From positions 5,509 through 69,508 of the forward strand of contig JAGVJJ010000011.1 of assembly GCA_020051175.1 (NCBI GenBank): a stretch of 64,000 nucleotides of DNA, in the 5' to 3' direction. The notes below the pieces were generated by a model. That model made no database searches, was not told the origin of the DNA, and saw only the letters and a list, made by a program, of their open reading frames with translations. The position numbers and the translations under genes are program-made. The stretch is from Bacteroidia bacterium (GTDB lineage: Bacteria > Bacteroidota > Bacteroidia > 2-12-FULL-35-15). Of the stretch, positions 23,489-34,054 are shown one piece after another (position 1 is the stretch's first letter; each line of letters opens with the position of its first letter).

Positions 23489-24415
23489 TTAGCTTATTGC
23501 TGTTTCGTAGCTAAACAAAAAGTTTTTTATATATGAATTTTTTATTAAGGCATAATTGAAAATAATTAAACCCGTAATGGCACATGTAATTCCCATTAAT
23601 ACATCCAAAGTATAATGATGTCCGGAATAAATCGCAGAAAACCATATTCCGATCATAAAAAATGCAAAGAAATAATTGATAATCCCCATTTTATTTTTTA
23701 AACCATTAAAGAGAACTACTACTGGATATGCCGAATGAAGCGAAGGCATTGCTGCAAAAACATTTGAGCTTTTAGAATATAACGCTCCGAACATATTTAT
23801 TCCAAAATAATTATCAAATCTCGATAGTCCGGCAGTGTTTCCTGGAGTATTAAAATGAACATCAAATCCGTATTTTTGCACATACCAAGGTGGCGCAGCA
23901 GGAAAAATATAATATACTACAAAGCCGATTATATTAACAAATAAAAAGGCTAATGAAAATTTAAGAAATTGTGTCTTATTTTTGCGAAATAAGTAAAAAG
24001 CAAAAATAAGTGGTATTGGCATCCAATTAATATAAAATAAGCCGGACGCTATATCTAAAAAAGTTTTTGAATGTTTTTGCGCGAATTCATTTGGGGTTAG
24101 TATCGTATTATTATCGGAAATTCCAAAAATGGACTTTTCTTTTAAATATAAATCCTTAATATGAATTGTATTAAATTGATAATTAGGGAACGCCTTCATA
24201 CTATCGAAAATTATCCAAAACACAATAAATATGGAAAAGCCTAATATGAATTTTCGTGTACTTACTGAAAAGTAATACATGAAATTAAATAATCCAGCCA
24301 GAAATAACTGATCCGTTTTAAATCCAATTAAAATGAATGAAAGAAGCAAATAACTTAATGTTATTGATGTTACAATTAGTATGTTTCTCAGCGGTACTTT
24401 GTTAATTTTTATCAT
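23489..24415 (-). CDS. inositol phosphorylceramide synthase-like protein (AUR1/PAP2 family)
   Basis: FPAAPPWY, AGLSRFD, FAAMPSLHSAY, YSGHHYTLD. Confidence 0.88.
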   Translation of the reverse strand: MIKINKVPLRNILIVTSITLSYLLLSFILIGFKTDQLFLAGLFNFMYYFSVSTRKFILGFSIFIVFWIIFDSMKAFPNYQFNTIHIKDLYLKEKSIFGISDNNTILTPNEFAQKHSKTFLDIASGLFYINWMPIPLIFAFYLFRKNKTQFLKFSLAFLFVNIIGFVVYYIFPAAPPWYVQKYGFDVHFNTPGNTAGLSRFDNYFGINMFGALYSKSSNVFAAMPSLHSAYPVVVLFNGLKNKMGIINYFFAFFMIGIWFSAIYSGHHYTLDVLMGITCAITGLIIFNYALIKNSYIKNFLFSYETAIS

Positions 24416-24422
24416 AATTTTA

Positions 24423-25049
24423 TCATGGTTTAAATCTTTCCGAAACTACCTTTCCCGTTGTAATATCATTTCCTGTTAACTCAACATATACCACATTGGG
24501 GCTCCAAAAAGAACCACCATCGGTTTTAAAAAAAATCTTCTTTAAAAGAGATATTTTGTCGTTTATTTTTACGAATGCGTGATACCTACATCCTTTTGTA
24601 GTATTCATTAAATAAATGTCTGTTTTTTTATATGAAACGATATTTAATTTAAACCATTTTTTTTCTTTATCGAAAGCGCTCACGTTAACACCGTACGCAA
24701 AACTATTTTGTATACCTGATAATGGTAATATTTCGCCATTGTCAGCGTAACGAATCCAATAAATCTTAACAGGATCTTTTTCGTTAATTGTACTATCTTT
24801 ATTATAATTTACTTCATAAACAATTGTATTGATATTATGAGTTCGCTGTATATAGAAAAGCATATTTTTATTGAACGGTGGGGTAGGAAATGTGTCTTGT
24901 GGATTCACTTGCTTAATGCTCTTCAAAACAACGGGCATAGAGGAATTAACTAAAGATGCATTCAGTAAAAAAAACAATGGCAATAGAAATACTACTATAT
25001 ATTTTGCATTAAAAAATCGCATAGTTGATGTTATTATTTTAAATGACAA
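24423..25049 (-). CDS. DUF4833-like exported protein
   Basis: LFYIQRTHNINTIVYE, PVKIYWI, FAYG, PNVVYVELTG. Confidence 0.75.
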   Translation of the reverse strand: MSFKIITSTMRFFNAKYIVVFLLPLFFLLNASLVNSSMPVVLKSIKQVNPQDTFPTPPFNKNMLFYIQRTHNINTIVYEVNYNKDSTINEKDPVKIYWIRYADNGEILPLSGIQNSFAYGVNVSAFDKEKKWFKLNIVSYKKTDIYLMNTTKGCRYHAFVKINDKISLLKKIFFKTDGGSFWSPNVVYVELTGNDITTGKVVSERFKP

Positions 25050-25261
25050 TTTGTTAAGCTATCGGAGTTATAAGATTGGCACGTTTTATCGTATCCTTTA
25101 CTTCCTAATTTGGTCGTTTTTACACTATCCACATTTGTATTGTTACCACTTTTTAACACTGAACATACGCACACATACTGTTTATTACAGGAAAAATTCA
25201 GACAGGAAGATATTAGTATTGTAAACACCAAAATTTTATTTGTTTTTTTTAACGCAATCAT
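25034..25261 (-). CDS. small Cys-rich putative lipoprotein
   Basis: signal ending FSC, CNKQYVCVC, paired C-terminal cysteines. Confidence 0.6.
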   Translation of the reverse strand: MIALKKTNKILVFTILISSCLNFSCNKQYVCVCSVLKSGNNTNVDSVKTTKLGSKGYDKTCQSYNSDSLTNCHLK

Positions 25262-31730: not shown

Positions 31731-32851
31731 TATAAATGCTTCATGTAAGATCTACGTTTCATGTGTTGTCTGGCCTCATAACCATTTGTAAACATCAGAA
31801 GAGAGTTTTTATTTTCTTCTAATACATGGCTTGATATAGCAGTTTTTACGCCATTATCAATAAAAGCCTGCATCATATGGGCGTAGAAAATAGCGGGTAC
31901 GCCTTTGCTCTTATATTCATCTTTCACTGCTTGTAAAAGCAAATCAGCAGTATCGTTTTTTCGCATGTCTTTTAAAATATGGATAAATCCCAAAGGGAAA
32001 AGTTTACCTTTTGCCTTCATTAAAGCTTTAGACAAGGATAAAAAACCCAAGCCAAAACCAACAACTTCGTTATTTTTATCGACAACAAAACTTACATACT
32101 TTGGATTAACCATAGAAAAGTAAAGATTTACGTAGTGTTTAATTTGTTTTTCAGTAAGAGGAACAAAGCCGTATAAATTTTTAAATGCCTCATTAAGAAC
32201 ATTGAACATTTGGTCAGCATAAGGCAATATCTCTTTTGCTTTTTTGAAATTTAAAATTTTTAAGTCGTATTTTTTTTGAACCAGTTCTGATATCCGCTTA
32301 ACTTTATCAGGGATTTCATTTGGAACTTTTATTTCATACTGAACCCAATCTACATCTTTTGAGTAACCATGTTTTTCTAAATGAACCGGATAATAAGGGT
32401 AGTTATAAATAACCGCTTGTGTTCCTATTTCATTAAAACCCTCAACTAACATACCTTCTAAATCCATATCACTAAAACCAAGAGGGCCTTGTGTTTTTGA
32501 CATACCTTTTGATTTCCCCCATTCTTCCACGATTTTTAATAAAGCTTCTGAGACAGCTGTGTCTTCAGTAAAATCAATCCAACCAAAACGCACTACTTTT
32601 TCGTTCCATTTTTCGTTCGCTCTGTGATTTATTATGCCTGCAATCCTTCCAACAATTTGCTTATTTTTATAAGCTAGCCAATATTTTGCTTCGCAAAAAT
32701 CAAATGCGGGGTTTACGCTAGAAGACAGTGCCGACTTTTCATAAGTATGAAGTTGCGGAACTCTATATTTATTTCCTTTATATAGTTTATCAGGAAAAGA
32801 AATAAATTTTTTCAAATCTTTACTGTTTTTTATTTCAACTATATGTACCAT
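31730..32851 (-). CDS. bacterial ceramide synthase-like GNAT protein (bCerS/YghO family)
   Basis: NPAFDFCEA, VGRIAGIIN, RFGWIDF, GPLGF..GMLVEGF, YNYPYY; adjacent to spt. Confidence 0.8.
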   Translation of the reverse strand: MVHIVEIKNSKDLKKFISFPDKLYKGNKYRVPQLHTYEKSALSSSVNPAFDFCEAKYWLAYKNKQIVGRIAGIINHRANEKWNEKVVRFGWIDFTEDTAVSEALLKIVEEWGKSKGMSKTQGPLGFSDMDLEGMLVEGFNEIGTQAVIYNYPYYPVHLEKHGYSKDVDWVQYEIKVPNEIPDKVKRISELVQKKYDLKILNFKKAKEILPYADQMFNVLNEAFKNLYGFVPLTEKQIKHYVNLYFSMVNPKYVSFVVDKNNEVVGFGLGFLSLSKALMKAKGKLFPLGFIHILKDMRKNDTADLLLQAVKDEYKSKGVPAIFYAHMMQAFIDNGVKTAISSHVLEENKNSLLMFTNGYEARQHMKRRSYMKHL

Positions 32852-32854
32852 AGA

Positions 32855-34054
32855 TTAACGACTAAGTTGCTTTACATTTAATTTTTTATATGTTTTTGCA
32901 ATCTTATCAATTGCAGTGTCTATTTGTTCGATGGTGTGCGTTGCCATTAATGAAAAACGGATGAGTGTTGATTCGGTTGGCACCGCGGGAGAAACAACCG
33001 GATTTACAAATACCCCTTCTTCTAATAACATTTTGGTTAGCAAAAATGTTTTTTCATTATCACGGATGTAAATAGGAATAATTGGCGATTCTGTTTTACC
33101 TATGTCAAAACCCAGCGTTCTGAATTTTTGAATGGCATAATTGGTATTATCCCATAACGTTTGGATACGATTAGGTTCTTCCTTAATAATTTCTAATGCG
33201 GCAATAACGCTTGCTGCCGATGCAGGCGGCATACTGGCGCTAAACATAAGCGAGCGGGCATTGTGCCTTATATAATCGATTGTTTTTTCGTCACCTGCAA
33301 TAAATCCACCCACCGAAGCAAGTGACTTACTGAACGTTCCCATAATTAAATCAACATCCTCTTCCAAGTTAAAATGAGATGCAGTTCCACTGCCATTGCT
33401 ACCCAATACACCAAGTGAATGCGCATCATCTAACATTACAACAGCTTCAAATTCCTTCGCAACAGCTATCAATGATTTTAAATCGACTATATCTCCTTCC
33501 ATGCTAAATATGCCGTCCGTTACAATAAACTTTATACTATTTTCCGGCAGAGAGCTTAATTTATTTCTTAAATCCTCCATATTGTTGTGGGCATATTTAA
33601 TCGTTTTAGAATACGAAAGCCTTGCCCCATCAATAATGGAAGCATGATTGTATTCATCTAAAAGAATATAATCATTTCTACCCGTTAAACATGAGATAAC
33701 TCCAAGATTCACTTGGAAACCTGTACTGAATACAATAGCCGCCTCTTTGCCAACAAATGCAGCGAGTTTTTCTTCCAATTGAACATGCAAGTCAATTGTG
33801 CCATTTAAAAAACGTGAGCCTGCACATCCAGAACCATATTTTTCCAAAGCAGCTTTTGCAGCCTCTTTTATTTTGGGATGAGTAGTTAATCCCAAATAAG
33901 AATTGGAGCCAAACATTAACAACTCTTTACCTTGATAGGTAATTGATGTGTTTTGACCTGAAGTAATAGCCTTGAAGTAGGGGTACATCCCTGCTTTTTT
34001 GATTTCATCCGCTGCCGTGAAAGCAGATAATTTTTGGTGTAATTGTTTTATCAT
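32855..34054 (-). CDS. spt: serine palmitoyltransferase (AOS family, PLP-dependent)
   Basis: [43 protein letters not shown]; lipid gene context. Confidence 0.88.

Follow-up and report, generated by a model that had tools for sequence, protein, structure and literature searches.

The 64,000-nt stretch of DNA analyzed here (the window; contig JAGVJJ010000011.1 of assembly GCA_020051175.1) belongs to a bacterium of the class Bacteroidia. Its positions 23000-35300 hold a 12.3-kb block of genes, the cassette, which is probably a cargo module for a complete de novo route to inositol phosphoceramide, located on a serine-recombinase island at a tRNA-Leu gene and moved between species and between island backbones. 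This reading draws on the cassette's gene content, the families of its proteins, its patchy distribution, its composition, and its near-identity across species and sites. In particular, the minus strand from 23489 to 34054 carries eleven co-oriented open reading frames (ORFs) with intergenic distances of -77 to +41 nt, and their order, content and coordinates match the run of abutting or overlapping genes described in the original prediction, which was made from the sequence alone. The genes of the cassette, including two upstream of the operon, are:

23489-24415, minus strand: AUR1-like PAP2 enzyme, candidate phosphoinositol-(dihydro)ceramide synthase (Pfam PAP2_3)
24423-25049, minus strand: DUF4833 protein with an N-terminal hydrophobic anchor, candidate partner of the phosphatidylinositol-phosphate (PIP) synthase (Pfam)
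25034-25261, minus strand: Cys-rich ORF of 75 amino acids (aa) with a lipobox-like ISSC (ORF list)
25273-25968, minus strand: PIP synthase of the CDP-alcohol family (NF052561 PIPSynBT1523)
26010-28607, minus strand: DUF5686 protein, 865 aa, with a signal peptide, a CarboxypepD_reg-like domain and a putative C-terminal Omp85-like barrel (Pfam, structure model)
28531-28929, minus strand: GtrA-family membrane protein in the BT_1524 position (Pfam GtrA_DPMS_TM, 76 bits)
28926-29384, minus strand: PgpA-family phosphatase, candidate PIP phosphatase in the BT_1525 position (Pfam PgpA, 137 bits)
29385-30716, minus strand: myo-inositol-1-phosphate synthase (MIPS; Pfam NAD_binding_5 and Inos-1-P_synth)
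30735-31730, minus strand: CerR-like extended short-chain dehydrogenase/reductase, 331 aa (Pfam Epimerase, 119 bits)
31730-32851, minus strand: bCerS-like GNAT-family N-acyltransferase, 373 aa, clade A (Pfam Acetyltransf_1)
32855-34054, minus strand: serine palmitoyltransferase (Spt; NF047600)
34120-34458, minus strand: 112-aa lipoprotein-like ORF with an LTAC lipobox (sequence)
34780-35289, minus strand: MarR-family regulator (Pfam), the last gene of the shared block

Pfam finds the expected domain in ten of the ten operon proteins scanned (the 75-aa ORF was left out of the scan), and the likelier start of the DUF5686 frame is 28568. The order as sampled is one genus with 68 species genomes, among which the unpublished genome G050 is counted as a negative; apart from the host genome (G000), only G002 contains the whole block 23000-35300, the operon together with its MarR gene, at 95.8% nucleotide identity. 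Both small lipoprotein-like ORFs are 97% identical to their G002 counterparts at the amino acid level. The 75-aa ORF has no NCBIfam match and no match at E≤1e-5 in the 97 related loci described below (80 genome and 17 metagenome loci); as it is known only from G002, it is the least certain gene of the operon. The 112-aa ORF has no Pfam or NCBIfam family and was not found in the other clusters. A promoter and terminator scan of positions 22500-36200 returned 53 and 6 candidates versus 66.8 and 6.2 in shuffled sequences, using a consensus that is not that of Bacteroidota, and is thus uninformative.

By its profile scores, the pyridoxal phosphate (PLP) enzyme at the head of the operon is a true serine palmitoyltransferase, and not a KBL or BioF. 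The original prediction had named a grouping with BioF or KBL as the outcome that would tell against it; the protein instead reaches 706.6 bits, over the cut-off of 640, on the equivalog model for CFB serine palmitoyltransferases (NCBIfam NF047600), and falls under the cut-off of every KBL, BioF and ALAS model in NCBIfam. Its best solved relatives are the Sphingobacterium SPT structures 8guh/3a2b (592 bits), compared with 277 bits for KBL, 249 for cysteate-C-fatty acyltransferase and about 200 for BioF. Residues 240-244 form the motif TFSKS, which we take to hold the PLP-binding lysine. Spts of Bacteroidetes use acyl-CoA as their substrate (PMC11324152), and an operon without acyl carrier protein (ACP) genes is thus as expected.

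The next two proteins are candidates for the remaining ceramide steps, assigned by domain type and by their fixed position beside spt. The bCerS-like protein gives a weak Pfam Acetyltransf_1 match (29.1 bits, cut-off 20.7) across residues 236-325 only, has no NCBIfam match, and returned one match at E 0.13 from the PDB. Proteins of its family number more than 6,800 and are about 373 aa long, the named ones being Bacteroidota "N-acetyltransferase" proteins, and an Atlas search likewise recovered only N-acetyltransferase clusters; its absence from five Myxococcota- or Bdellovibrio-like genomes is uninformative either way. Its gene, in turn, lies between spt and the reductase gene in 14 genome loci, 7 metagenome loci and 6 loci of the host genus that carry an spt-bCerS-cerR trio. 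The CerR-like protein has GSSGFIG at residue 11 and YGQSK (Tyr-x3-Lys) at residue 146, its best NCBIfam match is HpnA at 90.7 bits (far under the cut-off of 367.65), and its gene holds a constant position in the trios examined.

The inositol half begins with MIPS, present as one copy in the host genome, with 343 bits on NAD_binding_5 (PF07994) and 114 bits on Inos-1-P_synth (PF01658). The PIP synthase scores 400.1 bits on NF052561, above the equivalog cut-off of 350, with a complete CDP-alcohol motif starting from D76. The PgpA-like protein reaches 67 bits on the NCBIfam PgpA equivalog (cut-off 226); for PIP phosphatase function no profile model exists. The AUR1-like protein has NF052609 as its sole NCBIfam match, covering positions 5-304 of 305, and its SLH, SGH and HYTLD motifs, presumably those of the active site, are intact.

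The core enzymes and both half-pathways are of known kinds, and a candidate gene is present for every enzymatic step from serine, acyl-CoA, glucose-6-phosphate and CDP-diacylglycerol (CDP-DAG) to inositol phosphoceramide, which bears out the description of the cassette as self-contained. In the proposed route, Spt would condense serine with acyl-CoA, the bCerS-like GNAT enzyme would N-acylate the product, and the CerR-like enzyme would reduce the 3-keto group to yield dihydroceramide. MIPS would convert glucose-6-phosphate to inositol phosphate, the BT_1523-type synthase would combine it with CDP-DAG from the host to form PIP, the PgpA-like phosphatase would turn PIP into phosphatidylinositol (PI), and the AUR1-like PAP2 enzyme would transfer phosphoinositol from PI to ceramide. 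The upstream MarR regulator and a set of envelope proteins (GtrA, DUF5686, DUF4833 and the two small lipoprotein-like ORFs) would accompany the pathway.

The same arrangement recurs in other genomes. A scan for MIPS, using one genome per species, gave 80 loci; spt lies upstream of MIPS in 14 of them with bCerS in between, and with CerR as well in all but one. Six of these loci (L012, L013, L015, L018, L020 and L022, mostly from Chitinophagaceae) keep the full order of the window through AUR1, and the remaining spt-linked loci are cut by contig ends or rearranged, for example in the Saprospiraceae (L039, L058 and L060). Among metagenome MIPS loci, of which the best 17 of 80 were examined, seven have the spt linkage and four of the seven reach AUR1; the closest cluster within these best 17, L129, encodes a MIPS, DUF5686, PIP synthase and AUR1 that are 88%, 75%, 81% and 66% identical to those of the cassette. 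Further, MarR homologues (41-53% identical) are found upstream of Spt in 12 loci. Because the gene order recurs in 14 of 80 genome loci and 7 of 17 metagenome loci, it is more than chance.

A different end product is unlikely, though it is the alternative that fares best: the operon would produce PI and ceramide, and the final enzyme would make another phosphosphingolipid, or the two lipids would stay separate, or the inositol would go to a capsule. Consistent with this alternative, the AUR1-like protein scores 331 bits where NF052609 demands 480, and a different PAP2_C gene is paired with spt-bCerS-cerR in the trios of the genus. Moreover, the B. thetaiotaomicron capsule also holds inositol, and knocking out its GtrA gene (BT_1524) leaves the inositol lipids unchanged (PMC9246714). 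On the other hand, NF052609 is the only family that the AUR1-like protein matches, over nearly its full length and with the three motifs preserved. Its gene occupies the BT_1522 position, at the end of an identical order, and homologues of it are the last gene of the cluster in the six genome and four metagenome loci with the full order, as well as in further loci that are partial or rearranged. As its score is under the NF052609 cut-off, the protein is classed as working like BT_1522 and not as an equivalog member.

The location of the cassette is defined by comparison with related genomes and by the following features of the island and its surroundings:

15792-15872, plus strand: tRNA-Leu(CAA), the integration site of the island (ARAGORN)
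15754-17388, minus strand: large serine recombinase, 544 aa (Pfam Resolvase, Recombinase, Zn_ribbon_recom)
17626-22998, strand not assigned: backbone with helix-turn-helix (HTH) proteins of 132, 419 and 208 aa, small ORFs, TPR and DUF7793 (Pfam)
22986-23168, minus strand: rteC remnant, first 61 codons only (tblastn, 90% identity to the 283-aa RteC of G002)
23175-23420, minus strand: remnant of a 93-aa ORF (95% identity over 82 of 93 residues)
35342-43000, minus strand: module found in G000 only, with START-domain, OEP, split AcrB, HlyD, TetR and DUF7793-like proteins (Pfam)
43025-55507, strand not assigned: shared module with DoxX, LigB, MarR regulators, a second resistance-nodulation-division (RND) pump and TetR (Pfam)
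55757-64000, minus strand: prophage-like lysis and tail-fibre genes, outside the cassette (Pfam, PHROGs)

Left of 15.7 kb lie core genes (pth, L25 and prs) and cargo proteins of the type IX secretion system (T9SS). The 3′ end of the recombinase ORF overlaps the tRNA-Leu(CAA) gene, and the recombinase is 94% identical in amino acids to its homologue at the same site in G012, and 27% identical to the recombinase of G002. In the closest relative at the locus, G035, synteny resumes 7.7 kb past the tRNA; in G000, it resumes after about 99 kb. The intervening DNA is a mosaic. The backbone block (15900-22993) is 88% identical in nucleotides in G012 at the same tRNA-Leu and 72% in G032, also at the same site, and the backbone is partly present in G002, G038, G062 and G066 as well. 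The block 35301-43000 has a single genus match, of 66%, in G053, and the block 43025-55507 is 86-97% identical to G002 and G003. In G012 (L108:7411-11970, G012:C82), the backbone is followed by copper-resistance cargo, namely two CusB-like fusion proteins that contain heavy-metal-binding domains, together with a multicopper oxidase and an outer-membrane barrel, and the lipid cassette is absent; G003 has a related element after the same tRNA-Leu with yet other cargo. In G002, the neighbours of the cassette are an intact RteC gene, separated from the AUR1-like gene by the intact 93-aa ORF, and another serine recombinase, with an ORF that overlaps tRNA-Arg(TCT); a 57% relative of that recombinase is found at the tRNA-Leu of G003. 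The truncated rteC set against the window's backbone indicates that the cassette stems from an element like that of G002 and entered a different backbone by recombination. Thus, it would have passed from one species to another within an uncultured genus of Bacteroidia, and from one recombinase backbone to a second, unrelated one.

The cassette itself, which carries no mobility genes, is cargo and not a transposon: no terminal inverted or direct repeats were found at 23000, 35300 or 43060, where the only matches were AT-rich chance ones. Serine recombinases are not known to need flanking repeats. A 32-nt near-repeat (94%) of positions 15710-15741, just upstream of the tRNA-Leu, occurs 108 kb farther right, at C26:129029-129060, and may represent the outer boundary of the island or a repeated promoter element, or have arisen by chance.

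The composition of the island (approximately 15.9-55.5 kb, GC 32.9%) and of the cassette (GC 31.5%) differs from that of the genome (40.1%, standard deviation 1.9), with a z-score of -4.6 for the cassette; of 2996 windows that are 12.3 kb long, only three reach so low a GC, all on contig C55. That region, G000:C55 at about 18-38 kb (GC 0.308-0.321 in 12.3-kb windows), is the only other one as low, and may be another island. The original prediction had called the cassette transferable, and the low GC, the presence in 2 of 68 genomes, the 96% identity across species, and the two different tRNA-integrated recombinase islands speak for it. As far as could be searched, the finding of this cassette as exchangeable cargo on tRNA-integrated serine-recombinase islands is new.

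An ancestral cluster that was lost from most species of the genus, without any transfer, is very unlikely, although parts of the pathway are indeed more widespread than the cassette. Of the 68 genus genomes, 11 encode an Spt above the family cut-off (12 loci in all), and nine of these 11 lack the cassette; six of the non-cassette loci are spt-bCerS-cerR trios without inositol genes, and the cassette bCerS is 67-69% identical to four of the six trios examined. One trio, at G002:C30 (L125:6391-12346), is followed by a PAP2_C gene of the sphingomyelin-synthase-like type, with Mpo1-like and Exo_endo_phos genes across spt. MIPS, however, is limited within the 68 genus genomes to G000 and G002, and was not found in 11 genomes from other families of the class. 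Between G000 and G002 the cassette has 96% identity where the prs region has 76%, it occupies different loci (tRNA-Leu versus tRNA-Arg), and its GC z-score is -4.6. A comparison of the proteins in these two genomes gives 90% identity for bCerS, 92% for CerR and 97-100% for seven others (small ORFs and GtrA excluded).

Of the trees (IQ-TREE, quick search), those of MIPS and Spt point the same way. The MIPS tree joins the cassette pair with L129 and L007 (95% support), then with Ginsengibacter (99%), nested within the Chitinophagaceae, and the Spt tree sets the cassette pair on a separate branch outside the clade of the genus trios (99% support). The bCerS tree consists of two deep clades with 100% support each: the cassette's clade holds four of the six genus trios examined and Lentimicrobium, and the other full clusters fall in the other clade, at about 30% identity. 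A Chitinophagaceae-like MIPS together with a bCerS of another clade indicates that the cassette is chimeric. The original prediction had proposed a phylogeny of spt and ino1 against host taxonomy as a check; the deep nodes of the Spt tree do not resolve, and no donor can be named.

A chimeric contig, produced by assembly or binning, is highly improbable as the source of the linkage between cassette and island. The host genome, binned from a metagenome, has 117 contigs totalling 4.05 Mb (82% complete, GC 40.1%) and is placed by its Prs homologues among 'Bacteroidia bacterium' bins, and the island is a mosaic of blocks that it shares variously with three different genomes, which would suit an artefact. 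However, the window is part of a 212-kb contig with core genes on its left and G035 synteny resuming on its right, and the backbone stands at the same tRNA in G012. Moreover, independent Logan contigs bridge two of the junctions: a record from run X13 spans 22573-23228, across 22993/23000, and run X1 is unbroken over 23780-36990, across 35300 (runs X2 and X5 covered little of the stretch, which is no evidence of absence). The junction stretch 21500-24500 was detected at at least 75% of sampled words in 16 public runs from 8 studies of groundwater, drinking-water, sediment and activated-sludge metagenomes.

Least credible of all is a spread by lysogeny, with the cassette as a moron of the adjacent prophage, whose lysis and tail-fibre genes do begin 250 nt past the island at 55757, but are not shared with the cassette-bearing G002 and have the GC content of the host (0.40-0.43). 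A scan of IMG/VR viral contigs for Spt gave 10 pattern matches and no relative, and the 20 Spt matches in phage records were all below 40% identity and KBL- or BioF-like. The prophage genes encode an M23 peptidase, a GH108 lysozyme and tail fibres (two genes, PHROGs 972 and 910); past them lie small ORFs without a family. In plasmid records, the best Spt match was 59% identical (Parabacteroides), with no close relative.

Several points weigh against a mobile inositol phosphoceramide cassette and temper our confidence in it. The order of the reactions, the lipid product and the route of transfer are themselves deduced from sequence. On the enzymatic side, the AUR1-like protein has 331.2 bits on NF052609 PhinosDhcerSyn (cut-off 480), and the bCerS-like protein stands outside any curated family. 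On the side of transfer, no att repeats, circular form, conjugation genes or mobilisation genes were found in the window, so that transfer is deduced from comparison only; the outgroups of the Spt tree are very long and its deep nodes are not resolved; the genus is represented by metagenome bins throughout; and run X13 may come from the very sample that yielded the window.

The host has lipid genes of its own. A search for a second resident spt, suggested in the original prediction, found none in the 82% complete genome. Among the host's paralogues of Spt, the KBL scores 686 bits (cut-off 493) and the cysteate-C-fatty acyltransferase (G000:C78:6062-7189; L003:1420-2664) scores 625 bits to PDB 7u7h and 595 to 28eh; the others are an 813-aa fused form and a BioF-like protein. 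Given this acyltransferase and the lack of a second Spt, the host is probably a native sulfonolipid producer that acquired true sphingolipids through the island.

Fusion, synteny and co-occurrence connect two conserved accessory proteins of the operon with inositol-lipid synthesis: DUF4833, and a DUF5686 paralogue that is putatively Omp85-like. As far as could be searched, this link is new. In five other loci, DUF4833 and the PIP synthase form one ORF of 426-446 aa, with a hydrophobic linker between the parts (Chitinophaga rupis, Hymenobacter nivis, a Sediminibacterium bin and two more loci). In a sample of 300 genomes of the class, DUF4833 is present in 24, MIPS in 20, and both in 11, versus about 1.6 expected if independent, a comparison in which relatives are not independent samples; the two genes are at most 11 kb apart in eight of the ten other genomes having both. 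DUF4833 was found in none of 14 control genomes, B. thetaiotaomicron among them. It also occurs without MIPS in 13 of the 300 class genomes, for example in five of nine genomes of family f13, and hence is not tied to de novo inositol synthesis alone. Its structure model is an all-beta domain (pLDDT 81) for which Foldseek gave nothing at E≤0.001 and a wide VIA search reached Z 3.1 at best, which does not imply a new fold. DUF5686 has two paralogues elsewhere in the host genome, and its C-terminal part matches the barrels of BamA, TamA and Sam50 (Foldseek E 7e-8, probability 1.0), with TM values of 0.55-0.60 against barrel-only chains for a middling model (pLDDT 67, pTM 0.48).

A predicted barrel and a putative partner of the PIP synthase in the same operon suggest the hypothesis that the cassette may also place its lipids. 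A bolder version, which we regard as doubtful, is that the cassette is a portable kit for remodelling the outer membrane: DUF5686, DUF4833 and the small lipoproteins would act as a dedicated apparatus that carries anionic inositol lipids from the inner membrane to the surface, one integration would give a sulfonolipid producer a eukaryote-like inositol-sphingolipid surface, and phages or antimicrobials would provide the selection. If true, it would account for the efflux pumps that accompany the cassette on its islands, the sister elements of which bear metal resistance.

Among the neighbouring genes, the AcrB-type pump is split (37357-40443) into ORFs of 698 and 326 aa that cover profile positions 3-696 and 707-1019, which could reflect a frameshift, a stop codon or a true split. 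The START-domain protein (35342-35977), found in G000 only, has an N-terminal hydrophobic segment and lies between the MarR gene and the RND pump; it could carry lipid, and is outside the shared cassette.

The host lineage is uncultured, known from metagenomes of groundwater, drinking water, sediment and sludge. At 12.3 kb, the cassette is small enough to be cloned whole, making a one-step test of bacterial inositol phosphoceramide synthesis possible, and it offers an entry to the question of how bacterial sphingolipids reach the outer membrane.

Knock-outs in B. thetaiotaomicron identified BT_1526 as MIPS, BT_1525 as the PIP phosphatase, BT_1523 as the PIP synthase and BT_1522 as the PI-dihydroceramide synthase (PMC9246714). 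The cassette's MIPS, PgpA-like, GtrA, PIP synthase and AUR1-like genes follow the order of BT_1526-BT_1522 identically; in contrast to that cluster, DUF5686, the 75-aa ORF and DUF4833 are inserted, and spt-bCerS-cerR is joined upstream. In B. thetaiotaomicron, the SPT gene is BT_0870, elsewhere in the genome, in line with the original prediction (PMC9246714). From the distribution of inositol-lipid genes, Heaver et al. 2022 deduced their lateral exchange (PMC9246714); here, a physical vehicle for such exchange is observed.

On the ceramide side, the cassette resembles Caulobacter CCNA_01220/01212/01222 in having a PLP-type Spt, a GNAT-type N-acyltransferase and an epimerase-type reductase, which are adjacent here. 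The characterised bCerS and CerR are Caulobacter CCNA_01212/CCNA_01222 and B. fragilis BF9343_4218/BF9343_4240 (PMC10865984), and the cassette proteins are candidates for the same roles by their domain type and their position beside spt; the cassette has no ACP or acyl-ACP synthetase genes. Clustering of spt, bCerS and cerR is described as usual outside Bacteroidota, and in known Bacteroidota producers the three genes are reported not to be close together (PMC11334938).

The closest architecture is that of the chromosomal clusters of Chitinophagaceae and Saprospiraceae (for example Chitinophaga rupis, Taibaiella helva, Ferruginibacter and Flavipsychrobacter), which share the gene order, including MarR, DUF5686 and DUF4833, with identities of 75-88% for MIPS, 60-66% for Spt and 59-82% for the PIP synthase. 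Unlike the cassette, these clusters have a bCerS of the other deep clade and lack the 75-aa and 112-aa ORFs. GC content does not change between cluster and flanks in nine full clusters, and 19 cluster loci searched for recombinases, RteC or backbone proteins within 10 kb gave no match, indicating that the fused operon is an ordinary chromosomal feature of these two families. The original prediction had expected similar clusters on other Bacteroidota chromosomes and held the mobile location to be the notable part, and both expectations agree with an architecture that recurs chromosomally and an island context that is unusual. The fusion of ceramide and inositol head-group synthesis in one conserved operon of environmental Bacteroidota is new with respect to the literature found, in a limited search that returned no description of it; the supplementary tables of earlier surveys may list such genomes.

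Finally, the island resembles tRNA-targeting serine-recombinase islands and RteC-bearing Bacteroides elements, in that its recombinase abuts a tRNA gene, its cargo is variable and it retains an rteC remnant. We take it to be akin to the integrative elements of the CTnDOT and NBU type. The CTnDOT integrase is of the tyrosine type; the recombinase of the island, in contrast, is of the serine type.

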